Part shown: positions 21,459 to 63,235 of the stretch, piece after piece | Layout: each line of letters opens with the position of its first letter | Numbering within the stretch: position 1 is the stretch's first letter | Assembly: GCA_024226235.1 (NCBI GenBank) | Contig: JAAELW010000079.1 | Span: forward strand, 366 to 64,365 | DNA length: 64,000 bases | Direction of reading: 5' to 3' | From: a bacterium | GTDB lineage: Bacteria > Myxococcota_A > UBA9160 > UBA6930 | Program-made: the position numbers and the translations under genes | Notes under the pieces: generated by a model | What the model saw: the letters and a program-made list of their open reading frames with translations, nothing else | Told to the model about the DNA's origin: nothing | The model's database searches: none

Positions 21459-21497
21459 GGGGGCTCCTGAAAATCCTGGGGATCTGTACTGTGCTGC

Positions 21498-24296: not shown

Positions 24297-24297
24297 C

Positions 24298-25917: not shown

Positions 25918-25953
25918 TGCGAACTCCTTCTCTGCTGCGATCTGCCCTTGTGT

Positions 25954-27078: not shown

Positions 27079-27294
27079 TTTGGATGCTCCAATTCCAGGG
27101 CTTGATGGGATTCCGGCGTTGCCTGGATTCTTCTGTGGCATTCGACTCGAGTCAAGGAGGGTGGCCAGAGCCTTCTCTGCGGTGTCATCGAGAAGGAGGT
27201 AACGTGTGGCCACAAAAGGGCGTCATGGCGAGCGGCGCCGGGTCCGTTCCCATGGCTCTCAATCAGCCCTGAACAGACTCGAAAGGCCGTCGGT

Positions 27295-28635: not shown

Positions 28636-28659
28636 AGCACCCTTGACGATCGGTCGCAG

Positions 28660-30297: not shown

Positions 30298-30303
30298 GGC
30301 AGG

Positions 30304-31437: not shown

Positions 31438-31533
31438 GACTCTCCTTGATCTGTTTGGTCTGCGCGGTGGTCCGGCGAGCAGGGCACGAGGCTTCCGGCC
31501 TCCGCACGTCGGACGATATTCCTGGTTTCGTCT

Positions 31534-32760
31534 CTATCCGACGCGATGCGCCTCGAAAGTCTGCGCGCCAGCGTTCTCGTCGAGCAGATGGCGGGCAATC
31601 GTGAGAATCTGGATTTCGGTCGTTCCTCCGCCCAGCTCGAGAAGCTTGGCATCGCGTACGAGGCGTTCCACCTCGTACTCGGATATGTAGCCGTAGCCCC
31701 CAAGAATGTGGATCGCTTGCTGCGTGACTCGTGAGCCCACTTCTGCAACGTATAGCTTGGCCGCACAAGCATCGATGACCGAACCGGTCTGTTGCTTTGC
31801 ATAGACGATACGACGGCTGTTGCTGATATCCACGTACATGCGTGCGAGGCGTTCCTGTACGAGTTGATAGTTCGCGATCGGCTGACCGCCCTGTTCGCGG
31901 CTCTTCGCATACTCCAGCGCAATCTCGAATGCCTTCTCCGCGAGTGCATAACTCAGCGTCGCGATACCCAGGCGTTCTCCGGCCAGAGACTTGCGGACGT
32001 GATCTCGGTCCTCGACGCCACGGCCCAGGAGGTTGTCCGCGGGCACCTCCACGTCATCGAAGAAGACTTCACCGGTGGGGGAGGTCTTCATTCCCATTTT
32101 GTGGAACGGCTTGCTGGTGGTCACACCCTTCCACTCTCTTTCCACGATGTAGGCCTGAATCGCACCCGTGTCTGCATCCTTGGCATAGACGAGGAAGACA
32201 TCTCCATATGGGGCGTTGGTGATGAAGGTCTTGGAGCCATTCAGGATGTAGGAATCACCGGTCTTCTTTGCCGTCGTCCGCATCGAACCGAAGGCATCCG
32301 ATCCGGCGCCCGGCTCCGTCAAGCACCAACAACCGATCTTCTGCCCGCGCAGCACTGACGGCACGTATTTCTTGATCTGCTCGGGCGTACCATGCTTACG
32401 GATGTTGCCAGCACAGAGCCCGACACTCACGCCCCATGAGCTGCAAAGGCCCGGATTGACGCGAGCCATCTCGATGGTGAGCTGATTTCCCGCAAAGGTG
32501 ACGATCCGTTTCGTTTCCTCGTCATCGTCCGCGGGTTCGGCCGAGCTCTCGCCGTTCTTCACACCACCGGTGCTTTCGAGCCAATCCGCATCGGGAGCCA
32601 GGCCAAGGTCGGCGATCATCTGCTCGATGAAGGGAAAGGGCAGGATCTCCTGGTTCTCGAGCTGCTCGGTCAGAGGCGCGAGTTCGTTCTCCATGTACTT
32701 GCGGAACTGATCGCGGATGCCGCGTTCCATATCTGTGAACTGAACATCGTATACGGCCAT
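31534..32760 (-). CDS. Acyl-CoA dehydrogenase
   Basis: CLTEPGAGSD and C-terminal GGYGYISEYEVERLVRDAKLLELGGGTTEIQ. ATG at 32760 is preceded by GGGAGG. Confidence 0.9.
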   Translation of the reverse strand: MAVYDVQFTDMERGIRDQFRKYMENELAPLTEQLENQEILPFPFIEQMIADLGLAPDADWLESTGGVKNGESSAEPADDDEETKRIVTFAGNQLTIEMARVNPGLCSSWGVSVGLCAGNIRKHGTPEQIKKYVPSVLRGQKIGCWCLTEPGAGSDAFGSMRTTAKKTGDSYILNGSKTFITNAPYGDVFLVYAKDADTGAIQAYIVEREWKGVTTSKPFHKMGMKTSPTGEVFFDDVEVPADNLLGRGVEDRDHVRKSLAGERLGIATLSYALAEKAFEIALEYAKSREQGGQPIANYQLVQERLARMYVDISNSRRIVYAKQQTGSVIDACAAKLYVAEVGSRVTQQAIHILGGYGYISEYEVERLVRDAKLLELGGGTTEIQILTIARHLLDENAGAQTFEAHRVG

Positions 32761-32816
32761 GTCGACCTCCCAGGCCAGCATCGCCGAGCCGCCAACCGTC
32801 GTGCAGTGCGCTCGGC

Positions 32817-33620
32817 TCAGTGTCCCTTGAAGACGGGCTTGCGCTTTTCCAGGAAGGCGCGCGGTCCCTCGACTGCGTCCTTTGATTGCAAGACCGGCAT
32901 GCCGTAGCCGGTTTCGATCCCGAAGGCCTGCTCCTCGGGCAGCATGTCGGTCTCGCGCAATGTCGCGAGAATGGCCGTCACCGCGAGGGGGCCGTTCTCG
33001 GCAATGCGCTCGGCGATCTCCCGGGCCTTGGCAACGGCCTGGCCATCGGGCACGACGTGATTGATCAAGCCCAGCTCGAAGGCCCGTGCCGCGGTGAAGT
33101 CCTCGCCCACGAGAAGGATCTCGGCCGCGACCGCATAGGGGATCTGGCGGCGCAGCCGCACGACCGAGCCTGCCATCGGAAACAGCCCGCGCTGCACTTC
33201 GGTGACTCCGAACATGGCACTCTCGCCGGCGACGCGGATGTCGGTGCCCTGCAGGATCTCGGTCCCGCCCGCGCGCGCGAAACCCTCGGCGGCCAGAATC
33301 ACCGGTTTCTTCGGTCGGTGGGTCTTGAGCCAGGCACCCATGATCAGCGGCGGCTCACCCACGGCCCGCTTCATCCAATCGTTCTCGAGCTTTCCTGCCG
33401 TGAGCTTGGAGATCTCCGAGAGATCCATCCCAGCACAGAAGGTGTCCCCCTTCCCCGTGAGAATGGCGACGCGAAGATCATCATCGGCGTCCAGCTGGAG
33501 CCAGGCGTCATAGAGACGACACATGGCCTCGCAGTTGACCGCGTTCTTCTTCTCCGGGCGGTTCAAGGTGACGGTCAGGATCGCTCCGTCCTTCTCGACA
33601 AGCACAGCGGGGGCGGACAT
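32817..33620 (-). CDS. Enoyl-CoA hydratase/isomerase (crotonase) family
   Basis: LNRPEKKNAV, FCAGMDL, AGGTEILQGTDIRVA, EGPRAFLEKRKP. Confidence 0.9.
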   Translation of the reverse strand: MSAPAVLVEKDGAILTVTLNRPEKKNAVNCEAMCRLYDAWLQLDADDDLRVAILTGKGDTFCAGMDLSEISKLTAGKLENDWMKRAVGEPPLIMGAWLKTHRPKKPVILAAEGFARAGGTEILQGTDIRVAGESAMFGVTEVQRGLFPMAGSVVRLRRQIPYAVAAEILLVGEDFTAARAFELGLINHVVPDGQAVAKAREIAERIAENGPLAVTAILATLRETDMLPEEQAFGIETGYGMPVLQSKDAVEGPRAFLEKRKPVFKGH

Positions 33621-33671
33621 TGAATCTCCTCATGCTCGGGGCGTACCGGCTGTCACTGTGACAGATCCGGA

Positions 33672-34826
33672 TCAACTGAAGCTCGGGTTCGGATCCGAAC
33701 TCACGATCCACATCGCGAAGTAATTCGAGGCTCCACCGTAGGCGTGACCGAGGGCAACACGTGCGCCATCCACCTGGTAGTCGCCAGCGGTACCGCGGAC
33801 CTGGTTTGCAGCTTCGAGGCAGCGAACCATCCCCGACGCACCGATCGCGTTGGAAGAGAGAACACCGCCCGACATGTTCACCGGGAAATCACCACCGAGC
33901 TCGGTCGCACCCGAGTCGGTCATCTTCCAGCCGTCGCCCTCGTCGGCGATCAGGTGGCCTTCGAGCCACATCGGTTCGAACCAGCTGAAGGGGACATAGA
34001 GCTCGGCACAATCGATCTGGCGACGCGGATCGGTGATACCGGCCTTCTTGTACAAGGCCTTCGCACACTCCACACCCGCTGCCGGCTTCACCGGATCGCG
34101 GCCGGGGAATACCGTGAATTCGGTCCGCTTCGCATGAGCGAGCACCCAGGCGGGAGGTCGCGGCGTTCGCTTCGCACCGGCAACCGTCGTAATCACCATG
34201 GCCGCCGCACCGTCGGAGGAAGGGCACGCCTCGAAGAAGTGGAGGGGATCCCAGAGCATCGGGCTCTCCTTCACCTTCTCGATTGTAATTCCCTCCATCT
34301 GCAGATGTGCGTACGGATTCTTGAGCGCGTTCAAGCGATCCTTGACCGCGACCTTCCAGCCAATGTGCGGAGGCGCGCCACTCCTCTTGATGTACTCGCG
34401 AATCCATGGAGCGAAAGAACCGCCGGCACCGGCTCCTCCGCTACGGCCGCCACTCAGCGCCCACATGAAGTCGCCCTCGCTCTGCTTCTCGTACGCCAGG
34501 GTGAGAACCGTCTCATACATGCCGCTCTCGACAAGCGTCGCCGCGCTGATGGCGGTGGATGCGCCCACCGAGCCCGCAGTGTGGACGCGGTGAATGGGCT
34601 TGCCCACCGCATTCAGAGCATCCGCGAGCGATAGCTCGGGCATCATCACGCCCTCGAGGGCATCCGGAGCCTTGCCGATCACGACCGCATCGATGTCCGC
34701 AAAAGTCAGTTCCGCATCCTCGAGCGCGCGCAATGCAGCCTCGCGGACGAGACCATCCAGCGAGAGCGGGAGGCAACGGTCGTACTTGGTCTGCCCGAGT
34801 CCGACGACTCCACAGCGCTCGGCCAT
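33672..34826 (-). CDS. Thiolase-fold protein lacking the canonical nucleophile (Ltp-type, candidate retro-aldolase subunit)
   Basis: SCPx-like fold, but the nucleophile block reads VHTAGSVGASTAI (no Cys). The C-terminal block reads NMSGGVLSSNAIGASG (no GHP). Confidence 0.75.
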   Translation of the reverse strand: MAERCGVVGLGQTKYDRCLPLSLDGLVREAALRALEDAELTFADIDAVVIGKAPDALEGVMMPELSLADALNAVGKPIHRVHTAGSVGASTAISAATLVESGMYETVLTLAYEKQSEGDFMWALSGGRSGGAGAGGSFAPWIREYIKRSGAPPHIGWKVAVKDRLNALKNPYAHLQMEGITIEKVKESPMLWDPLHFFEACPSSDGAAAMVITTVAGAKRTPRPPAWVLAHAKRTEFTVFPGRDPVKPAAGVECAKALYKKAGITDPRRQIDCAELYVPFSWFEPMWLEGHLIADEGDGWKMTDSGATELGGDFPVNMSGGVLSSNAIGASGMVRCLEAANQVRGTAGDYQVDGARVALGHAYGGASNYFAMWIVSSDPNPSFS

Positions 34827-35887
34827 CAGGACTCTCCTTCCAGAATGCAGAGCAGGTTCTGCTGCAGTGCGGGTCCACTGGCCGCATGCCCGAGACCGCG
34901 TCCCGCTTCACCCGCGCGGATTCGGCGCGCCAGTTCGATGACTCGTGTCAGACCGGTCGCCATCACCGGATGACCACAGAGCGGCCCGCCGGAGGGGTTG
35001 ATCCTGGTGTGGTCGCCGAGGTCGAGTGCCTGGCGCAGAACGATCTCCTCGGGGCTGTAGCGAACGCAGAGCTCCGCCATATCGAGAGAGCCCGGGTCGA
35101 GACCCAGATGGCGCGCTGCAATACGCGACGATGGGGAGTCCGTCAGGTCGCGCAGGCCCAGGTGGTGGGATTCGATGCGATGGTCGATGCCGCGGATCCA
35201 AACCGGCTTCTCGCAAAGCTCGCGCGCACGGTGACCACGCGCGATGAGCATGGCCGATGCGCCATCGGAGATGGGCGGCAGGTCGTGTTTGCGGAGCGGC
35301 GAGGCATAGTACGGCTCTTCCAGCAGGTTTTCGGCGGGGATGTCCTTGGCGACCTGCGCGTATGGATTCGAAAGGGCATCGCGCCGGCTTCGCGAGACGA
35401 CCTCCGCGAAATCGCGCTCGCTGGCCTTCCCGGCCTGGAGCAAAGCGCTGGCCTGAAGTCCGGCCACGGAAACCGGATCGAGGCCGATCGGCGCATGAAC
35501 ATAGGGATCGGCCTGGAGAGGGAAGATCTCCCGCGGAGTGCCCGGCGACGATTTTCCGGAACCCGCGACCAGCGCGAGATCGATGTCCCCCATCTGGAGG
35601 CGCACGAACGCCTCGAAGAGCGCCCAGGCCCCATCCATCTCGACATGGGACTCATAGACCGGCGGCCAGGCACCAAAGCCGTCCACATTCGCGATGAAGC
35701 AGAATGGAGAGCCCGAAAGGTAGTCACTGCTGCCGGCAATCGTGAAATCGATCTGGTGCCGGTCGAGCCCGGTTTCCTCCAGAATCTGGTTCACGAGCCC
35801 CATCAACATCGACGGCTCGGTATCGGGGTAGCTTCGAACACAGGGCGTCTGCGCATAGGCGACGATCGCAATCTCTTCGGCCAACAC
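34826..35887 (-). CDS. Thiolase-fold protein lacking the N-terminal nucleophile Cys (partner subunit)
   Basis: The nucleophile region reads HVEMDGAWALFEA (no Cys). The C-terminal NPSGGPLCGHPVMATG is retained. Its stop overlaps the next gene's start by 1 nt (TGATG). Confidence 0.75.
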   Translation of the reverse strand: MLAEEIAIVAYAQTPCVRSYPDTEPSMLMGLVNQILEETGLDRHQIDFTIAGSSDYLSGSPFCFIANVDGFGAWPPVYESHVEMDGAWALFEAFVRLQMGDIDLALVAGSGKSSPGTPREIFPLQADPYVHAPIGLDPVSVAGLQASALLQAGKASERDFAEVVSRSRRDALSNPYAQVAKDIPAENLLEEPYYASPLRKHDLPPISDGASAMLIARGHRARELCEKPVWIRGIDHRIESHHLGLRDLTDSPSSRIAARHLGLDPGSLDMAELCVRYSPEEIVLRQALDLGDHTRINPSGGPLCGHPVMATGLTRVIELARRIRAGEAGRGLGHAASGPALQQNLLCILEGES

Positions 35888-36885
35888 TAGATCTGCTCCG
35901 GAAATTCTTCACGGGGAACGTCGGGCTCACCGGTGGGCTCCCAGCGCTCGATCACGTTCCCAGTGGTGAAGATCATCCAGCTGTTGTCCACGTTGTCGAC
36001 GTTGCGCTCGGCGACGGGCTTGAAAATCGCACGCAGGCGCATTCCCTCTCGGAACTCGTCCACGGGAATGTTGTAGATGTTCTGCATGGTGAGGGGTTGG
36101 TCCGAGCCGTCGAGGAAGATCGATGCGCTGACATAGGGCTCCGTCTCCGTCTGGCCCTTGTACTGGATCGGCGTGATCACCGTAAAGGAGGTGGCCGTGC
36201 CCGTGGGAGCGAGTTCCACGTCGTCAGCCTCGGTCATCAGCACGCGCGCCATTGGGTCGTAGCCCTTGCCCGGAATGGAGACACTGCCACTCACGGGGCT
36301 ACGCTGCCCAATGAACTTCCCATCGAGCAGCCCCTGCGCATAGCGAGCGCGGGACGGGTAGAGGTTCTCGTCGAACGTGAGCGAAATCAGGTGCGTGCTG
36401 ATTTCTACCTCACCCTCACCCGGCTCGATGGCCATGTCCAGCGCATCGGCTTCGGGCACGAAATAGACATCGCTGATTGCACCGGTGCGTTCCTCGCGGA
36501 ACTGCGCCTTCACCCGCATGCCGTTCGACATGGCCTCCGGGCCCGAAGCCTTGACAGCGTGGGTCATCGCGGTGTCGGCCCCGTCCAGCTTCACCTGCGC
36601 AAACGCAAAGGGTTCCCGGAAAGGATGTTTGCGCGAAGGCTCGGCAATCCATGTCCAGAACTCGACACACCCCATGGGCCCGACTTCGACGAAGTCCGGG
36701 CTCAGGGTCTCGCCCGTTTCCGGGTCGAACTCAAGCGGCGGACAGAGGACGCGACTCCCACATCGGATACCCAGGATGCGACCATCACGGAGTGCGGTCA
36801 GGAAGGGTCCGATCACGGGGCCGAGGGTCCGGGTGTAGGGATACTCGAGGGTAAAGGAGGTAGGAAATTCCGACATGGCCACCAT
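35887..36885 (-). CDS. Tandem double DUF35/OB-fold protein (degenerate zinc ribbons)
   Basis: 332 aa. The first half has RCGSRVLCPP..EFDPETGE plus an OB-like segment. The second half repeats the OB-like pattern without Cys. There is a 1-nt stop/start overlap with the downstream thiolase-fold gene. Confidence 0.65.
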   Translation of the reverse strand: MVAMSEFPTSFTLEYPYTRTLGPVIGPFLTALRDGRILGIRCGSRVLCPPLEFDPETGETLSPDFVEVGPMGCVEFWTWIAEPSRKHPFREPFAFAQVKLDGADTAMTHAVKASGPEAMSNGMRVKAQFREERTGAISDVYFVPEADALDMAIEPGEGEVEISTHLISLTFDENLYPSRARYAQGLLDGKFIGQRSPVSGSVSIPGKGYDPMARVLMTEADDVELAPTGTATSFTVITPIQYKGQTETEPYVSASIFLDGSDQPLTMQNIYNIPVDEFREGMRLRAIFKPVAERNVDNVDNSWMIFTTGNVIERWEPTGEPDVPREEFPEQI

Positions 36886-53442: not shown

Positions 53443-54564
53443 TCAGGCAGCGTCCGCGGCGATCAGCTTGCCCAGGCGGCGTAGCTGTTGGCTCTCACCG
53501 CCAAGGGTGAGTTCGATGTGTCGGGCGTAGAGGTAGTAGCGATGCAACGGGTACTCACGGTCGACGCCGACGCCACCGTGGAGGTGGACAGCAGCCCGAA
53601 CGATCCGTGCACCGCCGTCCGCGGCCCAAGCCTTGGCGACGGCCGTCTCTGCCGCCGCGCTCTTGCCCTCGTGAATCCGCCAGGCCGCCTGGAGGGAGGT
53701 GAGCCGCACGGCCTCGGTGTCGATGAACGCGTCGGCAGCGCGTTGCCCAACCGCTTGAAAGGTGGCGATCGGCTGATCGAACTGCTTGCGCGTCTTGGTG
53801 TACTCGGCGGTCAGCCGCAACGCTTCCCGGCAGACCCCCGCGGCCAACGCTGAGAGCGCCGCCGTCGCTCTTAGAGCGATCCAGCGCACGATCTCACGAC
53901 CCTGCGACGCGTCGCCCAGCAGAGCGTCCCCTCCTACCCGTACGCCGGTAAGCGCGAAGGCGGATTCCGGCTGAGCCGAGGTCGTCTTCAGGTCTTCTCG
54001 CGTGAGTCCCGAAACCCCGGCCCTGACCAGGAACACTGCCACGTCGTCTCCCAGACGCGCCGGGACCAGGATCGCATCCGCGAGTGGGCCGGCCGGAACG
54101 CAGATCTTCTCGCCCTCCAGCACCCAGCCATCGCCCTCGGCCCGAGCCGTGGTGCCCGGCTCGTCGATCTCACGGAAGGGCTCCACCAGTGCACTGGTCA
54201 CGATCGTCTCGCCCCGGGCGATGCCCGGAAGCCATGCTTCCTTCTGGGCGTCATTGCCGAACTGCACCAGGGGCATCGCTCCGAGCACGCTGCTCTCGAG
54301 CAACGGCACCGGCGCGACGCTCCGGCCGACCTCCTCCAGGATCCCGGTGATCTCGAGGAAGCCGAGCCCCGCCCCGCCGAACTCTTCGGGCACGACCACT
54401 CCCACCAGGCCCGCCTCCACGAGCTTGTCCCAGAGCCCAGGATCGAAACGTGGGCCGCCGCTCCGCTCAGTGGCCTGAAGGGCCTCCTGGCTGCAGTGGT
54501 CCTCGAGAATCTGGCGTGCGAGCTCGATCACCGCCGCCTGGTCGTCGCTGTATCGGAAGTCCAT
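53443..54564 (-). CDS. Acyl-CoA dehydrogenase family protein (second of an adjacent pair)
   Basis: MDFRYSDDQAAVIELARQIL opening with C-terminal HLHGGVGVDREYPLHRYY. The track ORF start 54936 is spurious. Confidence 0.85.
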   Translation of the reverse strand: MDFRYSDDQAAVIELARQILEDHCSQEALQATERSGGPRFDPGLWDKLVEAGLVGVVVPEEFGGAGLGFLEITGILEEVGRSVAPVPLLESSVLGAMPLVQFGNDAQKEAWLPGIARGETIVTSALVEPFREIDEPGTTARAEGDGWVLEGEKICVPAGPLADAILVPARLGDDVAVFLVRAGVSGLTREDLKTTSAQPESAFALTGVRVGGDALLGDASQGREIVRWIALRATAALSALAAGVCREALRLTAEYTKTRKQFDQPIATFQAVGQRAADAFIDTEAVRLTSLQAAWRIHEGKSAAAETAVAKAWAADGGARIVRAAVHLHGGVGVDREYPLHRYYLYARHIELTLGGESQQLRRLGKLIAADAA

Positions 54565-54587
54565 CGTCTGTTGTCTCCACGCTCTCG

Positions 54588-55769
54588 CTAGTGCCTGGGA
54601 ATCCGAGGAAGACCCAATCCGAACAATCCGATCAGGTCGCGCTGGATTTCGTTGGTCCCGCCGCCGAAGGTGAGGATCACCAACGCGCGGTAGTAGGTCT
54701 CGCAACTGCCCTTGGCGACGGCGTGCGCCGAGCCCCGGACCAGGTAGCCCGGCTGCTCCAGCACCTCCATCATCAGCCGAAGCGCATCCATGAAGAACTC
54801 CGTGCCGAAGACCTTCGTCGACGAGGCATCCGCTGCGGACAGCGTGCCTTGCTCGGCCGACCAGGCCACCTTCCAGTTGATCAGCCGCAGGAACGAGATG
54901 CCCTTGTAGACCTTCGCCAGGTTGAGCTGCACCCAATCCTCGTCGATCAATCGACGCCCGTCGGGCAGCTCGGTCTCACGCGCGTAGGCGACGACGCTGT
55001 CGTAGCAGCCCTCGATCATGCCGGTGGAGCAGATCGTCACGCGCTCGTGGTTGAGCTGATTGGTGATCAACTTCCAGCCCCTGTTGAGGCCGCCGACGAT
55101 GTTCTTCGCCGGGACCCTGGCGTTCTCGAAGAAGACCTGATTGATGTTGTGCTCGGAGAGCAGATCGAGAGGTTGGATCTCGATGCCTTCGGTGTTCTTG
55201 AGGTCCACGATGATCATCGAGATGCCCGCGTGCTTGGGAGCCTCGGGGTCGGTTCGCACGGCGAGCCAGCAGTAGTCTGCACCCCCCGCGAGACTGGTCC
55301 AGGTCTTCTGCCCGTTGATCAGATACTCGTCACCATCGAGCTCGGCACGGCACTGCAGCGACGCAAGGTCCGTACCCGCCCCCGGTTCCGAGTAGCCGAT
55401 GCAGAACTCCACCTCGCCGGCCGCGATCTTCGGCAGATAGAATTGCTTCTGCTCCTCGGTCCCGAAGGCCATCAGGGTGGGGCCCACCGTATTGGTCGAG
55501 AGCATCGGGATCGGTGCACCACAGCGCATCGATTCGTCGAAGAAGATGAAATGATCGATCTCGCCGCGACCGCGTCCGCCGTATTGTTCGGGCCAGCCGA
55601 AACACAGCCATCCATCCCTGGCCATCTGCTTGCGAATCGCCTTGGTCCGCGATCCGAAGCCGTGCTCTTCCGCCAGCTCAGCCCGGACCTCCGGGGTCAG
55701 GAGCTTGTCGTAGTAGGCGCGCAGCTCTTTGCGCAACGCCTCCTGCTCTTCACTGTATCCGATGTACAT
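54588..55769 (-). CDS. Acyl-CoA dehydrogenase family protein (first of an adjacent pair)
   Basis: MYIGYSEEQEALRKELRAYY opening, GYSEPGAGTD, and C-terminal TFGGGTNEIQRDLI. GGAGAAAG lies upstream of ATG 55769. Confidence 0.85.
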   Translation of the reverse strand: MYIGYSEEQEALRKELRAYYDKLLTPEVRAELAEEHGFGSRTKAIRKQMARDGWLCFGWPEQYGGRGRGEIDHFIFFDESMRCGAPIPMLSTNTVGPTLMAFGTEEQKQFYLPKIAAGEVEFCIGYSEPGAGTDLASLQCRAELDGDEYLINGQKTWTSLAGGADYCWLAVRTDPEAPKHAGISMIIVDLKNTEGIEIQPLDLLSEHNINQVFFENARVPAKNIVGGLNRGWKLITNQLNHERVTICSTGMIEGCYDSVVAYARETELPDGRRLIDEDWVQLNLAKVYKGISFLRLINWKVAWSAEQGTLSAADASSTKVFGTEFFMDALRLMMEVLEQPGYLVRGSAHAVAKGSCETYYRALVILTFGGGTNEIQRDLIGLFGLGLPRIPRH

Positions 55770-55812: not shown

Positions 55813-58191
55813 TCAGACGCCCTGCGGCCATTCGCCAATCACCTTCTCTGCTCTGAGCGCTTCGATCTGTGCGTCATCATGGCCGAGCTCGCGCAGGATC
55901 TCGGCATTGTGTTGGCCGAGCACCGGCGCCGCGCATTGCAGCCAGCTCTCGATACTCGCAAAGCGGAAGGGCACCGCCATCGTCGCCTGGGTACCCACGA
56001 TCGGGTGCGAAACCTCCTCGTGGAACCCGCGCGCAACCAACTGTGGGTGCTCGGCCAGGCTGCGAGGATCCACGACGGGGGCAGCCGGCACGCCGACGGC
56101 GATCAGCTCCGCGACGCAGCGATCGCGATCGAGGCTCGAAAACACCTCTGCCAGCCGCCGGTCGAGGGCATCCCGATGACGGTGTCGCTCCGTTAGCTCG
56201 GGTCCCGCACCGGTCGCCCAGGCCGGACGACCGAGCCAATCGACGAGCGCTGCCCACTGGGCCTCAGTGGCAACAGAGAGGGCCAGCCATTGCTGGCTCG
56301 TAGCAGGGTCGTGCCCCCTGCAGGCGTAGAGGCCCTGCGGAGCGGTCTCGGGGCTCCGGTTCCCCTGGCGTTCCATCAGGTGCCCGTGTCCCGTGTATTC
56401 GATCACCTGCTCGGCGGTGACGTTCAGAACGGCTTCCAGCATCGCGCATTCCACGAAGTGGCCGCGCTGGTCACGGTCGCACTCGGCCATCGCGACGAGC
56501 AGCGCAAAGGCGGCGTGCATGCCCGCAATCGGATCACATGGACCGCGCTGGATGCGCGGTTGGTCCTCCACGTGGCCCGTCAGCCAGGAGAGTCCAGCCA
56601 TCTGCTCCATGGTCGCCGCAAAGCCCACGAACTCGCGCCAAGGCCCGTCGAGACCAAAGGCCGGCATGCGGACGTAGTGGCAGCGCGGATTCAGCGCCTG
56701 CACCTTCTCCCAGCTGATATCGAAGCCATCCATCACCCGGGGGCTGAAGTTCTCGATCAGTACGTCCGCTTCGGCGACCAGCGACTCGAAGATCGCCATG
56801 CCCTTCGGCTGGGAGATGTCGAGCGCCAGACCGCGCTTGTTCGAGTTCGCGGAGAGGAAGACGAAGCTGCACTCCCACCAGTTCTCGTGCTGTGCGGCGA
56901 AGGTTCCGCCCACCGCACGGGCGCCGTCCATGCGCTGAACGGACTCGACGTGGATGACGTCGGCCCCGAGCGTGGCCATCATCTGCGTGGCGATCGGACC
57001 CGCCCACCAGGTCGTCGTATCGAGGATCCGGAGGCCCTGCAGGGGCAGACGCCTCTTGCCGGACTCGGGCGCCGGCTTGGCTTCGCGGGGCTCGATACGA
57101 CCCTGGTGTTCACCCAGGGCGGGCGCGGGTCGCGGAGGCTCGGGGGGCTGCCCGTCGATCCGATAGGGCAGACGGGGTCGGCGGAATCCACCGGACGGAT
57201 CCTCGATGAAGACGCCGCGCGCCCGCATCTGTTCGTGCTCGAGAACGGTCTGACCATTGCAGATCGGAGCGACGGGGATGCGAAGCATCTGTGCGAGTTT
57301 GATGATCTCCTCGCTGTCGTGCGTGTGGGTGTAGGCGTGGACGATCTCCTCCCAGTCCTCCAGCCGTGAGAGACGTTGCACGAACGCATCGAACTCGCCG
57401 GATTCGCGCAGATCCGGCCGTTCGATCATCAGCAGGAAGTCGGACATCTGCTGCGCCGAGTAGGTGGTGAAGCCGACGAAGCCATCCCGGGTGGGTTCGA
57501 TGGAGGGCGTTTCCATGTTCGGCAGCGAACCGACGACAGGCGGGCGTCCGAGAATGCCCCACATCAAGTCGAGGTAGCAGTTGGTCACCAGCGCAGTCGC
57601 TTCGTGCAGAGAGAAGTCGATGTGCTCACCGTGGCCGGTCGCCAGGCTATTCCGCACGGCGGCAAGCGCCGCCACCGCAGCGAAGCAGCCACCGGTCCAC
57701 TCGGACACGCGCCCACCCGCCTGGTAGGGCTCCGCACCAGGACGCCCCCTCGCTCCGAGTGAGCCGCTCTCTGCCTGGATCGTGAAGTCAGTGGAAGGTC
57801 GGCCGGCCAAAGGTCCCGTCAGCCCGAAGGGCGTGATCGAGAGGACGACGAGCGCCGGATGGCGCCCGCAAAGAGCGTTCCGATCGTAGGCGCCCGGCGG
57901 GAGATCCTCGATCAGGAGTTCGGCACCTGTGAGCAGCGCTTCGAACTCTTGCGAGGGGTCGTCGTCGAGACGGCCGATCACACCGCGTTTCGAGGCGTGC
58001 AGGTAGCGGAATAGCCCACCGTCCTCGTCCCCGAGCTCGGCGCTGGAGGCTGTCCACCGGCGCAGCGCATCCCCGTCGGGCGGTTCGACCTTGATCACGT
58101 CCGCGCCCGCGTCGGCAAACATCTTGCCGACGTACGAGCCGGCGATGCCGCTTGCGAGGTCGATCACCCGGATGTCCTTCAGACCCTCCAC
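55813..58191 (-). CDS. Tandem fusion of two family III (CaiB/BaiF) CoA-transferase domains
   Basis: Domain 1 opens IRVIDLASGIAGSYVGKMFADAGADVIKVEPPDG. A Pro-rich linker GQPPEPPRPAPALGEHQGRIEPREAKPAP follows. Domain 2 opens LRILDTTTWWAGPIATQMMATLGADVIHVES. The start is uncertain: the ORF is open to ATG 58341, but the first 50 residues look non-coding, so GTG 58191 is preferred. Confidence 0.8.
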   Translation of the reverse strand: MEGLKDIRVIDLASGIAGSYVGKMFADAGADVIKVEPPDGDALRRWTASSAELGDEDGGLFRYLHASKRGVIGRLDDDPSQEFEALLTGAELLIEDLPPGAYDRNALCGRHPALVVLSITPFGLTGPLAGRPSTDFTIQAESGSLGARGRPGAEPYQAGGRVSEWTGGCFAAVAALAAVRNSLATGHGEHIDFSLHEATALVTNCYLDLMWGILGRPPVVGSLPNMETPSIEPTRDGFVGFTTYSAQQMSDFLLMIERPDLRESGEFDAFVQRLSRLEDWEEIVHAYTHTHDSEEIIKLAQMLRIPVAPICNGQTVLEHEQMRARGVFIEDPSGGFRRPRLPYRIDGQPPEPPRPAPALGEHQGRIEPREAKPAPESGKRRLPLQGLRILDTTTWWAGPIATQMMATLGADVIHVESVQRMDGARAVGGTFAAQHENWWECSFVFLSANSNKRGLALDISQPKGMAIFESLVAEADVLIENFSPRVMDGFDISWEKVQALNPRCHYVRMPAFGLDGPWREFVGFAATMEQMAGLSWLTGHVEDQPRIQRGPCDPIAGMHAAFALLVAMAECDRDQRGHFVECAMLEAVLNVTAEQVIEYTGHGHLMERQGNRSPETAPQGLYACRGHDPATSQQWLALSVATEAQWAALVDWLGRPAWATGAGPELTERHRHRDALDRRLAEVFSSLDRDRCVAELIAVGVPAAPVVDPRSLAEHPQLVARGFHEEVSHPIVGTQATMAVPFRFASIESWLQCAAPVLGQHNAEILRELGHDDAQIEALRAEKVIGEWPQGV

Positions 58192-58255
58192 CCAGGCTAC
58201 CGACGTGTCTCGCGGGTCATTCCCTCTCCTCTCGGACTCCAGCCTTCGGGCGATT

Positions 58256-58378: not shown

Positions 58379-58999
58379 GTGTCGAAGGCGCCCCTCGAAC
58401 TGCTCCAGACCTACCGCCGCACCCAGATCCTGAAAGCCGCGAGCGAAGTGATCAGCGAAAGCGGTTACGACCGATCCTCGGTCGACCAGATCGCCAAGCG
58501 CGCCGGTCTCAGCCGCAGCACCATCTACGAGTATTTCCCGTCGAAGGACGAGATCCTGAAGGGATGCTTCGCCGCCCAACGCGAGGATCTCGCCGAGTCG
58601 CTGGCCCGACGCATCGACCGCGCCAGCGGAATGGAGCAGCAGCTCGCGGCCTTCTTCGAAATCTGTCTGTCACGAGTCGACCGGAACCGCGAGTTCTTCC
58701 GGGCGATCGCGTTCCCGATCCCCCTCTACGAGGCCACAGCCCAGGAAGGGCCGGGCAGCACGGAGTTCGCGCTGGTGCTCAAGAACTTCAACGACGAAAT
58801 GGACCGGATCCTCGACGACGGTCTCGGGCGAGGCGAACTCCGGCAGCCGGTCGGGCCAGCGGAGCGGGACAGCCTGGGCACGCTCCTCGTGGGCGCGATG
58901 AGCGCTCGGAGCCGGCTCGACGCACCGCCTCCGATCGAAGAGTCGGCCGCCTCGCTCGCGAGCTTCGCCCTTCGCGGCCTGGGCTTCGCGCTCGACTAG
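58379..58999 (+). CDS. TetR-family transcriptional regulator
   Basis: GTG at 58379 is preceded by GGGAGGGGG. HTH block YDRSSVDQIAKRAGLSRSTIYEYFPSKDEIL. Confidence 0.85.
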   Translation: MSKAPLELLQTYRRTQILKAASEVISESGYDRSSVDQIAKRAGLSRSTIYEYFPSKDEILKGCFAAQREDLAESLARRIDRASGMEQQLAAFFEICLSRVDRNREFFRAIAFPIPLYEATAQEGPGSTEFALVLKNFNDEMDRILDDGLGRGELRQPVGPAERDSLGTLLVGAMSARSRLDAPPPIEESAASLASFALRGLGFALD

Positions 59000-59058: not shown

Positions 59059-59634
59059 ATGACCGAAACCGAAATGGACGAACTGAGAGAACGACTCGAG
59101 AAGTACGTCGGCAAGCCAATGGGCGCGGCGGCAGTTGCACCCGACCCGGTCAACCTGCCGATGATTCGGCATTGGGTGGCCGCGTTGGACGACCAGAACC
59201 CCGTGTACCTCGATCAGGAAGCGGCAGCCGGGAGTCGCTTCGGTGGGATCGTCGCCCCTCCGGCCATGCTGCAGGCCTGGACGATGCCCAGCCCCAAGAT
59301 CGAGGGCATCGCGGAGCGCGGCGGTGCGCCCAGGGAGAGTCGGGGCGAGAATCCGATTTCCATTCTCGACGAGGCCGGCTACGTCGGCACGCTGGCGACC
59401 AACTCCGAGCTCGAATTCCTCCGCTATCTGCGGCCGGGCGACCACCTCCACACGACCATGGAGCTCGAATCCATTTCGAGCCGCAAGAACACCAGCCTCG
59501 GACAGGGCTACTTCATCACCTGGGTGACGAACTACTTCGCGGGCGACGAGGAAATCGTGGGCAAGCAGCTCTTCCGCATTCTCAAGTTCGACCCAAGCAG
59601 CATCGACCCCAGCAGCCTGAAAGGTTCAGGATGA
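59059..59634 (+). CDS. Hot-dog fold protein, MaoC N-terminal-like (ChsH-type hydratase subunit)
   Basis: 191 aa. VNLPMIRHWVAALDDQNPVY and hot-dog-like beta segments. Its stop overlaps the next gene's start (ATGA). Confidence 0.7.
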   Translation: MTETEMDELRERLEKYVGKPMGAAAVAPDPVNLPMIRHWVAALDDQNPVYLDQEAAAGSRFGGIVAPPAMLQAWTMPSPKIEGIAERGGAPRESRGENPISILDEAGYVGTLATNSELEFLRYLRPGDHLHTTMELESISSRKNTSLGQGYFITWVTNYFAGDEEIVGKQLFRILKFDPSSIDPSSLKGSG

Positions 59635-60056
59635 AGACCGCGATCCCCAGTAGCAACGTCAAGGTCGGTCACGAGCTTCCCGAGTTCGCGCTTCCGGTCA
59701 CCTCGACGGTGATCGTCGCGGGCGCGATCGCATCGCGCGACTTCATGCCCGCACATCACGATCCCGAGTACGCCCGCGGTCAGGGAGCACCTGACATCTT
59801 CATGAACATCCTCACGACCAACGGCTACGTTGCGCGCTACGTGACCGATTGGGCCGGGTCGGAGGCGATGATCCGCACCATCCGGATCCGACTCGGGGGG
59901 CCCGCGGTCCCGGGCCAGCTCCTGCGCTTCACGGGGCAAGTGACGGCTGTGGGTGAGGAGGCCGACGAGCGAGTGATCGAGGTGACACTTCGCGCCGTCA
60001 ACGATCTCGGTGAACACGCCACGGGGACCGTCGTGGTCACCCTGCCGCTCACATGA
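59631..60056 (+). CDS. MaoC-like (R)-specific enoyl-CoA hydratase subunit
   Basis: 141 aa. SRDFMPAHHDPEYA resembles the MaoC hydratase motif. There is an ATGA overlap on both sides. Confidence 0.75.
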   Translation: MKTAIPSSNVKVGHELPEFALPVTSTVIVAGAIASRDFMPAHHDPEYARGQGAPDIFMNILTTNGYVARYVTDWAGSEAMIRTIRIRLGGPAVPGQLLRFTGQVTAVGEEADERVIEVTLRAVNDLGEHATGTVVVTLPLT

Positions 60057-61276
60057 CTGGACGCAAAGCACACATCGTCGGCGTCGGAGAGACGCTCTAC
60101 ACACGCTGGGGCAAGATCGGCGACGTGACGGAGCACGCCCTCGCATGCCAGGCGATCGGTCGCGCCGTCGAGGACGCGGGGCTCGACCTATCCGACGTCG
60201 ACGGCCTCGCTTCCTTCGCCGAGGACCGCAACGAGGCGACCTTCCTCGCGGCGGAGCTTGGGCTCCCCTCGCTGCGCTTCGCCAACATGGTTTGGCTGCC
60301 CGGTGGAGGAGGTGGCTGCGCCGCGGTGGGCAACGCGGCGATGGCAGTGGAAACCGGCCAGGCCGAAGTGGTCGTGGTCTACCGTTCGCTCTGTCAGGGG
60401 CAGTTCTTCCGCTTCGGGGCCGCGGGCAGGGACCCGACAGCGCCGGTCGATCCGGCCCCGCCGACCGTCAAGCCGGCAGGCTCCCTGATGCTGGCCTCGA
60501 TGGGCTTCGCCATGCCCTACGGCCTGCTGATGGCCGCTGCCGCCTACGCCCTGCCGACCCGTCGCCACATGCATCTCTACGGCACCACGACCGAGCAGCT
60601 CGGAATGTTGGCAGTGACCTTTCGGGAGCACGCCAGCCGCAATCCCCGCGCGGTGATGGGCGGGCGCCCGATGACCTTGGCCGACCACCAGGCTTCTCCG
60701 ATGATCGCCGACCCGCACCGCCTGTTCGACTGCTGCCTCGAAAGTGACGGCGCCTGCGCCGTGGTCGTCACCACCGAGGAGCGCGCACGCGATCTCGCGA
60801 AGCGGCCCGTAGAGATCCTCGCGAGCGTGCAGGGTGCACCCAAGGGCTACGGCTTCGGCCCCTTCACCAACGCCAACATCGCCGACGAGATCTACGCTAC
60901 CGGCGGCACCGAGGAGATGGCGAATCGACTCTGGGAAAAGGCCGGTCTCGGCCCGAGCGATGTCGACGTCGCCGAGATCTACGACCACTTCACCGGCTGT
61001 GTCCTGATGCAGCTCGAGGACTACGGCTTCTGCAAGAGAGGGGAAGGTGGACCCTTCATCGAGAGCGGCGCACTCGCCTGGCGAGGTGGAAGCCTGCCCA
61101 CCAACACCCACGGCGGAAGCCTCTCCGAGGCCTACATCCACGGTCTCAACCACGTCGTCGAGGGTGTCCGCGCGCTGCGCGGTGAATCGACCAGTCCCGT
61201 CGAGGGCGCCGAAGTCGGCCTCGTCACGAGCGGAGCCTGCGTTCCATCGAGCGCCGTCTTGCTCGGGCGACGCTAG
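60053..61276 (+). CDS. Thiolase-fold lipid-transfer-protein (Ltp)-type enzyme
   Basis: KAHIVGVGETLYTRWG opening. GGGGGCAAVGNAA retains a Cys, but the C-terminal block reads NTHGGSLSEAYIHGLNH (no GHP), as in Ltp2-like aldolase/thiolase proteins. Confidence 0.8.
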   Translation: MTGRKAHIVGVGETLYTRWGKIGDVTEHALACQAIGRAVEDAGLDLSDVDGLASFAEDRNEATFLAAELGLPSLRFANMVWLPGGGGGCAAVGNAAMAVETGQAEVVVVYRSLCQGQFFRFGAAGRDPTAPVDPAPPTVKPAGSLMLASMGFAMPYGLLMAAAAYALPTRRHMHLYGTTTEQLGMLAVTFREHASRNPRAVMGGRPMTLADHQASPMIADPHRLFDCCLESDGACAVVVTTEERARDLAKRPVEILASVQGAPKGYGFGPFTNANIADEIYATGGTEEMANRLWEKAGLGPSDVDVAEIYDHFTGCVLMQLEDYGFCKRGEGGPFIESGALAWRGGSLPTNTHGGSLSEAYIHGLNHVVEGVRALRGESTSPVEGAEVGLVTSGACVPSSAVLLGRR

Positions 61277-61284: not shown

Positions 61285-61728
61285 ATGAGCGAGCGTTTCT
61301 TTCCCGACAGCATGCCGCCGCCGCTGGCGGATTCTACGACGCTCCCCTGGTGGGAGGCAGCAGCGGATCATCGCCTGGTCGTGCAGCGCTGCACACCGTG
61401 TGGGCACACCCGCCTACCTCCGGCGCCCATCTGTCCGGAGTGTCGATCCACCGAGTCCGACTGGCAGGAGGTATCCGGCCGCGGCCGTGTCTACACCTAC
61501 ACTGCGGTCCACCGGCCGATCGCCGCCGGACAGGAACTGCCCTTCATCATCGCGGTGATCTCGCTCGAGGATGCCGGCGGTCTGCGGATCATCTCGAACC
61601 TGGTCGGCACCCCACCCGAGGCGGTCACGATCGACATGCCGGTCGAGTTGGTCTGGGAAGACATGAGCGCCGAGCTGTCCATTCCACGTTTCCGCCCCGT
61701 TCCGACCCCCCCTTCCGATGAAGACTGA
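61285..61728 (+). CDS. Stand-alone DUF35 zinc-ribbon/OB-fold protein
   Basis: CTPCGHTRLPPAPICPECRS ribbon followed by the OB segment GRGRVYTYTAVH. Confidence 0.8.
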   Translation: MSERFFPDSMPPPLADSTTLPWWEAAADHRLVVQRCTPCGHTRLPPAPICPECRSTESDWQEVSGRGRVYTYTAVHRPIAAGQELPFIIAVISLEDAGGLRIISNLVGTPPEAVTIDMPVELVWEDMSAELSIPRFRPVPTPPSDED

Positions 61729-61768: not shown

Positions 61769-63235
61769 ATGACCACCGAATCCACTCCCACCAATCTCCG
61801 CTTCCTGATCATCGGAGCTGGAATGTCCGGAATCCTCAGCGCCATCAAGCTGCGAGAGGCCGGCATCGACAACTTCGCGATCTACGAGAAGGCGGATCGC
61901 CTGGGTGGAACCTGGCGAGAGAACGAGTACGCGGGTGTGGCCTGCGACGTGCCCTCGCATCTCTACAGCTACTCGTTCTCCCCGAACCCGGAGTGGACTC
62001 ATCGCTTCTCGCCCGGCGCCGAGATCCAGGCCTATTTCGAAGAGGTCGCGCGTGGCTACGGCGTGGACTCGCTGATCCAATACGGCAAGGAGATCACCCG
62101 CTGCGAGTACCGGGACGGACGATGGCGAATCGAGATGACCGACGGATCGAGCGACGAAGGCGACTTCGTCATCGCGGCGACTGGCGTCCTCCACCACCCT
62201 GCCTACCCCGACATCGAAGGCCTCGAATCCTTCGGGGGCACGACCTTCCACAGCGCACGTTGGAATCACGACGAGTCATTGAAGGGCAAGCGTGTCGGGC
62301 TCATCGGAACGGGCTCGACCGCGATCCAGATCGTGTCGGCGCTGATCGACGAGGTCGGGGAACTCTCCGTCTTCCAGCGCACCCCCCAATGGGTGCTGCC
62401 CGTCGAGAACACTGCCTACTCCGAGGACGAGAAGGCCGAGTTCCGCAAGAACCCCGCGGCGATGCGGGAGATCCGGGACGAGATCGCTCGCCAGTTCGTC
62501 GATGGCTTCGCCAACATCCTCGGTGACGTGAAATCGCCGCTGCTGGAGCTGATTCACACCACATGCGAGGCCAATCTCAACGACAACGTTCGCGATCCGG
62601 AACTCAAGGAGAAGCTGCGCCCCGACTACAGGGCTGCCTGCAAGCGCCTGATCATGTCTGAGGATTTCTACGATGCCATCCAGAAGCCCAACGCGAAGGT
62701 CGTCGTCGAGGGAATCGAGCGGATCGAGGAATCCGGAGTGCGGACTTCCGACGGACAGCTGCACGAGCTGGACGTACTCATCCTGGCGACTGGGTTCCGC
62801 GTCGATCGTTTCATGCGCCCGATGGAGGTGGTCGGCCGCGGCGGCAAGACTCTCGAAGATGCATGGGACAACGGCCCGATTGCCTACCTGGCGATATCGA
62901 TCCCCGACTTCCCGAACCTCTTCATGCTGAATGGTCCCAACGGACCCGTCGGGAACTTCTCCCTGATCGACGTCGCCGAGCTGCAGTTCTCTTACATCAT
63001 GCAACTGGTCGATCGGGTTCGATCCGGCTCCTGCAAGGAACTCAGCGTCTCGCAAGACGCGATGGATCGCTTCGACGAAGAGCGCAAGAAAGCCGCCAAG
63101 ACGACGATCTGGGCCAGCGGCTGCAAGAGCTGGTATCTCGATGCAGACGGAGTGCCGGCCGCCTGGCCTTGGACGTTCGACCGGTTCCGGCAGGAGATGG
63201 AGGGGCCTCGCCTCGAAGACTACGAGGTGAAGTAA
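61769..63235 (+). CDS. Baeyer-Villiger / flavin-containing monooxygenase (class B)
   Basis: FLIIGAGMSGILSA (FAD), BVMO fingerprint FGGTTFHSARW (FxGxxxHxxxW), and GLIGTGSTAIQ (NADPH). Confidence 0.85.
   Translation: MTTESTPTNLRFLIIGAGMSGILSAIKLREAGIDNFAIYEKADRLGGTWRENEYAGVACDVPSHLYSYSFSPNPEWTHRFSPGAEIQAYFEEVARGYGVDSLIQYGKEITRCEYRDGRWRIEMTDGSSDEGDFVIAATGVLHHPAYPDIEGLESFGGTTFHSARWNHDESLKGKRVGLIGTGSTAIQIVSALIDEVGELSVFQRTPQWVLPVENTAYSEDEKAEFRKNPAAMREIRDEIARQFVDGFANILGDVKSPLLELIHTTCEANLNDNVRDPELKEKLRPDYRAACKRLIMSEDFYDAIQKPNAKVVVEGIERIEESGVRTSDGQLHELDVLILATGFRVDRFMRPMEVVGRGGKTLEDAWDNGPIAYLAISIPDFPNLFMLNGPNGPVGNFSLIDVAELQFSYIMQLVDRVRSGSCKELSVSQDAMDRFDEERKKAAKTTIWASGCKSWYLDADGVPAAWPWTFDRFRQEMEGPRLEDYEVK

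Follow-up and report, generated by a model that had tools for sequence, protein, structure and literature searches.

The minus-strand gene at positions 55813 to 58191 of the window (the whole 64,000-nucleotide stretch of DNA analysed here) encodes two complete family III (CaiB/BaiF) CoA-transferase domains in one chain, with a short proline-rich linker between them. We interpret its product as a single-chain counterpart of heteromeric BbsE/BbsF-type CoA-transferases with its active site in the C-terminal half, which would activate a bulky acid without ATP, and we place the probability of this overall explanation at about 60%. A preliminary description of the same DNA had proposed the fusion and assigned activity to the N-terminal half. 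The main value of the present analysis lies in correcting this reading: the fusion is real, its architecture is known, and the active half is most probably the opposite one.

A single reading frame with two family III domains

The gene and its parts are laid out as follows.

55813..58191, minus strand: two-domain family III (CaiB/BaiF) CoA-transferase gene, 792 aa, GTG start at 58191, TGA stop at 55813-55815
57097..58191, minus strand: N-terminal half, residues 1-365, a BbsE-type module without a conserved nucleophile
57046..57096, minus strand: inter-domain linker, residues 366-382 (IEPREAKPAPESGKRRL), the sole dip in pLDDT
55813..57045, minus strand: C-terminal half, residues 383-792, predicted BbsF-type catalytic module

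The frame is open throughout from 58191 to 55813 (792 codons plus TGA); the unnoticed stop or frameshift that, according to the preliminary description, might split the gene was looked for along this interval, and neither was present. The public gene call (P0002) is the identical 792-aa product, a protein search returned about 120 homologues that are collinear with it and 785-808 aa long, and Pfam CoA_transf_3 (PF02515) matched two stretches of the protein (537.9 bits; gathering threshold 23.3), which places it in the superfamily and bears out the earlier proposal of two family III domains in one ~790-aa chain. A longer alternative starting at ATG 58341 was ruled out, since VEGLKDIRVID, read from the GTG, is where both the homologues and the public gene call start.

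The N half stops at an AP.LGEH motif, ~25 residues short of the C-terminus of a free-standing subunit, and its best PDB match was 9fn0_A (5.7e-34), while that of the C half was 9fn0_B (8.8e-61). The AF2 model of the whole chain has a mean pLDDT of 93.6 and a pTM of 0.95, values which indicate that the two halves are held in a fixed arrangement. Confidence is lowered only in the linker block 371-380 (pLDDT 65), and the region 340-384 that includes the linker varies from 24 to 76 residues in length among relatives. The linker had previously been drawn at nt 57153-57049; residues 347-382 are indeed proline-rich (9 Pro in 36), but the APALGEHQ part belongs to the conserved AP.LGEH motif of domain 1. 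In Foldseek searches, the best matches were BbsEF chains, on which each half could be superposed, with target TM-scores of 0.90-0.92 for the C half against 9fn0_B/D and 9fol_D at 32% identity.

Kinship with BbsEF and spread of the two-domain design

In a maximum-likelihood tree, the N halves without exception clustered with 9fn0_A (100/96) and the C halves with 9fn0_B (99/90), each set as a clade of its own; the homodimeric enzymes fell outside both. From this placement, the protein is predicted to be a single-chain BbsE/BbsF-type heterodimer: its N half is nearest to BbsEF chain A and its C half to chain B/D, and both of the differentiated modules, E-type (Asp-less) and F-type (Asp-bearing), are present here. 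In the nucleophile column, Asp553 of the C half stands opposite Asp178 of chain B/D; the BbsE-type chain A has a Tyr and no Asp, and the N half is likewise Asp-less. The earlier statement that family III enzymes must form homodimers was too strong, as the heteromeric BbsEF exists and its two subunit types correspond to the halves of the present protein. Two-domain enzymes and heteromeric BbsEF would then both combine one lineage of partner modules, which lack the Asp, with one lineage of catalytic modules, which carry it, and this shared pair offers a simple rule by which thousands of double-length "CaiB/BaiF family" proteins could be annotated as one-site enzymes.

Unlike BbsEF, which is made of two polypeptides, the present protein is one chain, and its gene lies among sterol-type acyl-CoA dehydrogenase (ACAD), MaoC hydratase and Ltp2 aldolase genes instead of bss/bbs genes, with neither a BbsCD dehydrogenase nor a crotonase-type BbsH beside it. 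The bbs/bss toluene operon (BbsABCDGH, BssABC) was not found around the gene, and the BbsA-like match of the DUF35 protein was weak, at 37 bits where 250 are required. Lacking this context, the gene is therefore not a BbsEF orthologue.

The two-domain design has already been described and is very common, with 2,401 homologues counted in 2017 (PMC6006322), and the protein studied here is an uncharacterised member of this known class. Its full-length collinear homologues number more than 230 and come from many assemblies and phyla. The source genome encodes at least nine two-domain family members (nine intact paralogues), as well as a genuine split pair in which an E-type gene is followed by an F-type gene (L018). 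A domain-2-only search for close split (two-gene) relatives returned mostly fragments of fused genes. One candidate two-gene form, L013, was rejected as a frameshifted fused gene, its N-part covering residues 1-220 only and its C-part beginning at residue 393. A 798-aa mycobacterial fused protein (L011), which we take to be a Rv1866/Rv1867-like arrangement, has a basal position in both half-clades and resembles the present protein in having an Asp in the C half, with Ser in the N-half column. However, it is only 28% identical, lies in another neighbourhood beside a thiolase-like gene, and is likewise uncharacterised, a literature search for a functional study of Rv1866 having yielded none of use.

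Active-site residues point to the C-terminal half

In family III enzymes, whose two ring-shaped subunits thread through each other in the dimer, the catalytic Asp begins a long central helix (Asp169 in Frc and CaiB, Asp165 in MCT). The residues that bear on the location of the active site are listed below.

56533..56535, minus strand: codon of Asp553, predicted catalytic nucleophile of the C half, aligned with YfdW Asp169 and BbsEF chain B/D Asp178
57700..57702, minus strand: codon of Glu164, N-half residue of the nucleophile column, aligned with the catalytic Asp of 4ed9, YfdE and 10uh
57904..57906, minus strand: codon of Asp96, N-half site of the canonical E-N-F Asn, which is lost (column comparison)
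56749..56751, minus strand: codon of Asn481 of the IENFSPR motif, C half, Asn in 121/121 close and 110/115 distant relatives
57787..57789, minus strand: codon of Asp135 in TDFTIQAESG, helix alpha5, the "YE"/"YD" block of Frc
56617..56619, minus strand: codon of Ala525 in GFAATMEQMAG, Ala in 121/121 close homologues

Alignments place Asp553 of domain 2 and Glu164 of domain 1 in the nucleophile column. The identity of the BbsEF nucleophile was taken from PDB entry titles, that of 9fol naming Asp178 as the "D178-CoA adduct". Asp553 is invariant across 235 full-length relatives (120/120 close and 115/115 distant), and the catalytic Asp of the family is thus found in the C half, where the preliminary description had seen none, and not in the N half with its variable Glu164. 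At position 164, the 121 close homologues (≥57% identity) have A48 E39 S15 G10 D3 Q2, and the 115 distant representatives have E66 D21 plus others; being acidic in 76% of the latter, this residue may have some role. The Asp96 column reads D42 S40 G14 N5 among the same 115 representatives, and the contact between the corresponding Asn and pantetheine has been described for MCT (PMC9196870).

Because Asp553 is invariant while the N half has a variable Glu164 and a lost Asn, the enzyme appears to be asymmetric, with a competent C half. Considering architecture and active-site placement jointly, it is very probable that the C half is the catalytic module and the N half a partner without a conserved nucleophile or pantetheine-contacting Asn. 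The asymmetric, covalent pseudo-dimer suggested earlier would therefore hold as far as one competent and one degenerate half are concerned, but with the halves reversed. The N half is nonetheless not decaying, its mean pairwise identity being nearly that of the C half (0.69 vs 0.70 among close relatives, 0.34 vs 0.40 among distant ones), and domain 1 keeps many invariant residues, including Q139, A140, E141, S144 and R148.

This near-equal conservation could also be read as a sign that both halves are competent, Glu164 acting as an alternative nucleophile so that each chain would have two different sites. We consider this improbable. The N-half nucleophile column is E or D in 87 of the 115 distant representatives, and two paralogues from the same genome (L023 and L024), whose N halves retain the Asp as well as the Asn of the ENF type, may truly carry two active sites. 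Within the protein's own group of orthologues, however, 73 of 121 sequences carry A, S or G at position 164, as an indispensable nucleophile would not allow; Asp96 moreover stands where the Asn that contacts pantetheine would be, and the BbsE-type chain has its Tyr in the nucleophile column. The Frc D169E mutant is reportedly nearly inactive. A structure of this mutant exists (1vgr), and in PtmU4 the changes D430A/E/N cut activity 125-400-fold, so that an Asp-to-Glu replacement nearly abolishes it (PMC6006322).

Gene neighbourhood

The transferase gene lies next to the following genes.

53443..55769, minus strand: two acyl-CoA dehydrogenase genes, directly downstream and co-directional, Pfam ACAD domains
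54588-55769, minus strand: ACAD large subunit, 43 nt past the transferase stop
53443-54570, minus strand: ACAD small subunit, Pfam ACAD
58385..58999, plus strand: divergent TetR-family regulator, Pfam TetR_N 2e-17
59059-59634 and 59631-60056, plus strand: ChsH1/ChsH2-like MaoC hydratase pair, PDB 4wnb/4w78, 1.7e-34 and 5e-28
60053-61276, plus strand: Ltp2-like aldolase, PDB 6ok1_A, 5.6e-81
61285-61728, plus strand: free-standing DUF35 protein, Pfam zf-ChsH2/OB_ChsH2_C
61769..63235, plus strand: Baeyer-Villiger/FMO-type flavin monooxygenase, last in the divergent operon, Pfam FMO-like and Pyr_redox_3

The ACAD large subunit, whose ATG is preceded by a GGAGAAAG Shine-Dalgarno sequence, matches PDB 4x28_A (8.2e-127) and Tcur3483 6wy8 (5.7e-108) and is of the ChsE4/5 type. 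The aldolase match 6ok1 is a lipid-transfer protein which we take to be the Ltp2 aldolase. Together with the hydratase pair, these neighbours strongly match the actinobacterial igr-type enzymes of cholesterol side-chain degradation (ChsE4-ChsE5, ChsH1-ChsH2, Ltp2-DUF35), with the difference that the DUF35 domain is here a separate small protein. In the actinobacterial side-chain pathway, the acids are activated by ATP-dependent FadD ligases, and to our knowledge a two-domain CoA-transferase is no part of the described igr-type operon.

The whole 8-gene layout, including the divergent TetR gene, also occurs in L002 at 77-91% identity. In L003, L007 and L017, a homologue of the monooxygenase is encoded close to the transferase, and Ltp plus DUF35 genes, ACAD pairs or the Baeyer-Villiger monooxygenase recur near homologues in L010, L016 and L017. 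An operon conserved across the family was considered and rejected: among the loci of ~70%-identity homologues, the full module is present only in the closest relative, and the other contexts are varied, with L015 lacking acyl-CoA genes nearby. For this reason, inference of the substrate from the neighbourhood is weak.

Comparison with other two-domain and homodimeric enzymes

The two characterised two-domain enzymes both go beyond simple CoA transfer, DddD having lyase activity as well and PtmU4 acting in sulfur transfer (PMC6006322). The present protein is like them in architecture and Asp position, with tandem family III domains, a variable, poorly conserved linker and, as in PtmU4 with its essential D430, a key Asp (here the predicted Asp553) in the C-terminal domain; it differs in that both of its halves are full length. 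It could thus be a bifunctional enzyme, either a DddD-like transferase/lyase or a PtmU4-like, thioacid-forming sulfur transferase, and the conserved yet Asp-less pocket of the N half, for which plain CoA transfer gives no account, would fit such a role. The surroundings of the gene make this even less probable than two competent halves. The immediate neighbours are the TetR regulator and the two ACADs, and no acyl-CoA synthetase of the PtmA3 type, the partner in the "thioacid cassette", is adjacent, the nearest AMP-binding genes being >25 kb away. Neither a transporter nor ddd-like genes indicative of a DMSP-type context were seen near the gene, and the neighbours form a complete dehydrogenase/hydratase/aldolase set requiring only an acyl-CoA input.

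The fold is shared by the homodimeric enzymes (Frc/YfdW, YfdE, CaiB, SUGCT, Mct), against which each half gave target TM-scores of 0.81-0.93; the catalytic Asp column and the E-N-F motif are common to them and the C half. Whereas they pair two identical chains with two equivalent sites, the present protein unites two modules that have diverged from each other in a single chain, probably with a single site. The preliminary description had regarded Asp135 as the only competent residue and domain 2 as degenerate, and had considered a formyl-CoA transferase-like role alongside a putative 2-hydroxyacyl-CoA lyase. The motifs on which it relied, TDFTIQAESG (134-143) and GFAATMEQMAG (523-533), are present as reported, Ala525 does occupy the place equivalent to Asp135, and domain 2 is moderately similar to Frc/YfdW (1e-45). 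Yet the xDxxxQAxSG block is not the nucleophile block: it corresponds to the "AYENVAQ" block of Frc/YfdW, ~28 residues upstream of the nucleophile, and aligns there with YfdW AYENVAQ and 4ed9 GYDFMIQ. Position 135 is D90/E28 in close homologues, and the BbsF-type chain 9fn0_B likewise has no acidic residue at the Ala525 position (GYGVNLN). The protein also scored below the cut-off of every NCBIfam equivalog model, and far below those of the formyl-CoA transferase models (PRK05398, 297 vs 442 bits; TIGR03253, 284 vs 504 bits). The glycine-rich GGGGQ loop in the small domain of Frc is missing from both halves: opposite YfdW GGNAGGGGQPG, the C half reads QGNRSPETAPQG and the N half VVGSLPNMETPS. 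The proposed lyase, a ThDP enzyme, lies 45 kb away with no linkage to the gene and reached no NCBIfam cut-off, that of 2-hydroxyacyl-CoA lyase included (218 vs 600 bits). With the invariant Asp553 in the nucleophile column of domain 2, we regard this reading as very improbable. The chance that the long frame is an artefact, with an error in sequencing or assembly having joined two neighbouring genes, is negligible: broken versions do occur in long-read assemblies, such as L013 called as two genes, but the full-length homologues and intact paralogues counted above, a linker in frame with both halves, and the confident whole-chain model all speak against it.

Proposed mechanism and role

For the single-chain BbsE/BbsF-type transferase that we favour, analogy with Frc, CaiB and BbsEF suggests that Asp553 would attack the thioester of a donor acyl-CoA to form a mixed anhydride, which would be converted to an Asp-CoA thioester before CoA is passed to the acceptor acid. 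The N half would most likely be an obligatory partner that completes the lone active site and shapes the acid-binding pocket, so that each chain would have one active site. Judging from the gene neighbourhood, the substrate might be a carboxylic acid resembling a sterol side chain, bulky and either branched or alicyclic, and activated without ATP, and the CoA donor a short acyl-CoA, e.g., propionyl-, acetyl- or succinyl-CoA. The product would pass to the adjacent ChsE4/5-like dehydrogenase, then to the ChsH1/2-like hydratase and the Ltp2/DUF35 aldolase, which would regenerate a short acyl-CoA and leave a ketone for the neighbouring Baeyer-Villiger-type monooxygenase. This substrate class and CoA cycle are put forward tentatively, at somewhat less than even odds.

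In the Bbs pathway, succinyl-CoA is the donor for the next round. By a rather unlikely extension of the proposed cycle, the Asp-less N half, with its invariant Q139-A140-E141/S144/R148 surface, could be the selector of a bulky steroid or isoprenoid acid, and the short acyl-CoA released by the aldolase could serve as the next donor, closing an ATP-free CoA cycle, perhaps in a physical complex with Ltp2/DUF35. If so, sterol-type side-chain cleavage would have, in uncultured Myxococcota/"Deltaproteobacteria"-like bacteria, a variant that is started by a CoA-transferase. Apart from this extension, the tie to a ChsE/ChsH/Ltp2-type module suggests that uncultured bacteria may enter the side-chain cleavage of bulky acids by an ATP-saving route. 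As for the partner module itself, the N-half nucleophile columns of one genome span Asp, Glu, Tyr, His and Trp, a range that offers a natural series for probing its function.

A single gene encodes both CoA-transferase domains

The preliminary description had proposed two complete family III (CaiB/BaiF) domains within one polypeptide, encoded by the following gene:

55813-58191, minus strand: two-domain CoA-transferase, GTG start at 58191, TGA stop at 55813-55815, 792 codons in an open frame

This proposal was borne out, since the public gene call (P0002) yields exactly the same 792-aa product, ~120 homologues (785-808 aa) align with it end to end, and the Pfam model CoA_transf_3 matches it twice (537.9 bits). 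Two separate genes at 55813-58191 are ruled out by the single frame and these end-to-end homologues. A longer frame from an ATG at 58341 is conceivable, but both P0002 and the N-terminal consensus of the homologues (MxGLKxLRVVD) start at the transferase segment VEGLKDIRVID. Upstream of this start, a 7-codon mini-ORF (58197-58220, minus strand; ATG ACC CGC GAG ACA CGT CGG TAG, encoding MTRETRR) follows a strong Shine-Dalgarno-like GGAGAGGGA and stops 5 nt before the GTG. As the GTG at 58191 has no obvious ribosome-binding site of its own, termination-reinitiation coupling between the two frames is possible.

The proline-rich linker had been placed at nt 57153-57049 (about residues 347-382). This stretch does contain 9 prolines in 36 residues, but it opens with APALGEHQ, which belongs to domain 1 as its conserved C-terminal AP.LGEH motif. 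The actual linker spans about residues 366-382, the sole place where an AlphaFold2 model of all 792 residues, built from a 78-sequence alignment, loses confidence (pLDDT 65). Across the whole chain, mean pLDDT was 93.6 and pTM 0.95, which implies that the predicted arrangement of the two halves is confidently fixed. The top Foldseek matches were chains D/B of BbsEF, the heteromeric benzylsuccinate CoA-transferase (target TM 0.90-0.92), with the other half matching chain A (0.84), and we infer from homology a threaded, interlocked topology of the halves.

The predicted catalytic aspartate lies in the C-terminal half

Domain 1 had been considered competent and domain 2 degenerate based on the strings TDFTIQAESG and GFAATMEQMAG. 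Both occur as quoted (residues 134-143 and 523-533), but this block aligns with YfdW "AYENVAQ" and 4ed9 "GYDFMIQ" instead of with the nucleophile block. When the nucleophile column was set by HMMER alignments to solved structures and by a MAFFT alignment, it fell ~28 residues further on, just ahead of the long central helix, in agreement with Asp165/Asp169 as described previously (PMC9196870). In this column, the C half (residues 383-792) carries Asp553 (GPCDPIAGMH), aligned with YfdW Asp169 and Asp178 of BbsEF chains B/D, while the N half (residues 1-365) carries Glu164 (GRVSEWTGG). The title of PDB entry 9fol names a "D178-CoA adduct", and by residue count from the alignment Asp178 falls in the 409-residue BbsEF chain.

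Asp553 is invariant both in 121 relatives (57-100% identity) and in a distant set of 115 full-length proteins, each of which represents a 50%-identity cluster and shares 32-54% identity with the transferase (115/115). Position 164 is variable, with A48 E39 S15 G10 D3 Q2 in the same 121 relatives and E66, D21, and others in the distant set. In MCT, the Asn of the E-N-F motif touches the pantetheine arm (PMC9196870). The C half retains this canonical residue as Asn481 (110/115), whereas the N half has Asp96 in its place (Asn in only 5/115). Taken together, the invariant Asp553 and retained Asn481, set against the variable Glu164 and Asp96, indicate at the sequence level an asymmetric enzyme whose predicted catalytic half is the C half. 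The earlier idea of an asymmetric enzyme with one competent half thus stands, with the halves reversed and a different role from the one proposed. A conserved Asp in domain 2, named at the outset as the finding that would overturn the earlier assignment, is what the alignments show.

The two halves group with the BbsE-type and BbsF-type subunits

The N half was nearest to the BbsE-type chain of BbsEF (9fn0_A, 5.7e-34) and the C half to the BbsF-type chain (9fn0_B, 8.8e-61). In a maximum-likelihood tree built from 40 halves of each kind together with reference enzymes, 9fn0_A formed one clade with all N halves (support 100/96) and 9fn0_B another with all C halves (99/90). The homodimeric YfdW, YfdE, and 4ed9 fell outside both, along with the window's single-domain transferase. 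The most fitting description of the transferase is a heterodimer of a BbsE-type and a BbsF-type subunit in a single chain, not a homodimer subunit recently duplicated in tandem. A distant fused protein from a mycobacterium (L011, 28% identity) takes a basal position in both half-clades and displays the same kind of pattern, with Ser in the N-half column and Asp in the C-half one. Both halves are about equally conserved (N vs C, 0.69 vs 0.70 in close and 0.34 vs 0.40 in distant relatives), which marks the N half as a partner under constraint instead of a copy in decay. The 9fn0 chains nest inside the N- and C-half clades, beside the same fused relatives (P0374, P0382). As far as the tree suggests, BbsEF originated when a fused gene was split, or else there was more than one fusion event.

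Two-domain transferases are widespread

The architecture has already been described, and the transferase adds one more uncharacterised protein to a class that is known and very widespread. Dong et al. (PMC6006322) assigned the conserved Asp of two-domain enzymes to the C-terminal domain, found activity of PtmU4 D430A/E/N to be down 125-400-fold, and counted 2,401 two-domain homologues in 2017. Our own survey agrees with this wide occurrence: of the best 150 cluster representatives from a 1.84-billion-protein library, nearly all were fusions of full length, and this held down to 32% identity.

The 5.07-Mb genome that contains the window (G000) encodes at least nine two-domain paralogues that are intact, along with some 15 of the single-domain kind. 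Among the nine, the C-half column is always Asp, and the N-half column is Glu in three, Asp in two, Tyr in two, Trp in one, and His in one. Two paralogues (L023, G000:C534:6200-9100; L024, G000:C430:49500-52300) have Asp and the E-N-x Asn in both halves and, unlike the transferase, may each possess two working active sites. Adjacent single-domain genes at L018 (G000:C534:18300-21000), the first Asp-less with His in the nucleophile column and the second Asp-bearing, form a true split pair of E/F type, in the order seen in the fused forms and in one genome with them. Another locus (L019, G000:C39:17400-21500) holds three family III genes in a row, two with the catalytic Asp and one gapped there. 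On a long-read metagenome contig (L013, 4835-7194), two called pieces match only residues 1-220 and 393-792; this call is a frameshift artefact or pseudogene of a fused gene, rather than a natural split form.

Gene neighbourhood and candidate role

The features considered were:

Downstream of the transferase, 43-nt gap: two acyl-CoA dehydrogenase (ACAD) genes
Divergent from the transferase: a TetR gene, plus an operon encoding a pair of MaoC-type hydratase subunits, a thiolase-fold protein, a small DUF35 protein, and a flavin monooxygenase
8778-10526, minus strand: ThDP enzyme with all three TPP domains, 45 kb from the transferase

The large ACAD subunit matches PDB 4x28 (8.2e-127), which we take to be ChsE4-ChsE5, the hydratase subunits match ChsH1/ChsH2 (1.7e-34 and 5e-28), and for the thiolase-fold protein the match is the "lipid-transfer protein" in PDB 6ok1 (5.6e-81), presumably the Thermomonospora curvata Ltp2 aldolase. 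L002, the closest relative (77% identity), has the same layout of all eight genes. Homologues at ~70% identity occur in varied contexts, often with Ltp and DUF35, ACAD pairs, or a BVMO (L010, L016, L017); none of these was found in the neighbourhood of L015. No ligase accompanies the dehydrogenase, hydratase, and aldolase of the module, and the transferase may be what supplies the acyl-CoA. It would transfer the CoA of a short acyl-CoA to a bulky acid, branched or alicyclic, and the aldolase's short acyl-CoA product could be reused as CoA donor, like succinyl-CoA in the Bbs pathway (PMC10818641). We consider this role, read from the gene neighbourhood alone, tentative and somewhat short of an even chance.

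The formyl-CoA-transferase-like role suggested previously, alongside a 2-hydroxyacyl-CoA lyase, was not upheld. Frc models score the transferase well under their cut-offs, and the Frc GGGGQ loop is missing from both halves in the alignment. The distant ThDP enzyme reaches no NCBIfam cut-off, its best match being an acetolactate-synthase-like model (295 vs 587 bits), with 218 vs 600 bits for the 2-hydroxyacyl-CoA lyase model.

In the genome as a whole, a single KshA_C match (3-ketosteroid 9-alpha-hydroxylase-type Rieske; G000:C62:26681-27262) exceeds the cut-off, a weak hint that steroid-like rings are perhaps attacked. Within the window, 17428-36885 is dense in acyl-CoA metabolism genes, including three AMP-binding ligases, two crotonases, several thiolase-fold/DUF35 sets, a single-domain family III CoA-transferase (30304-31437), an acetyl-CoA hydrolase/transferase, and a nitronate-monooxygenase-like gene.
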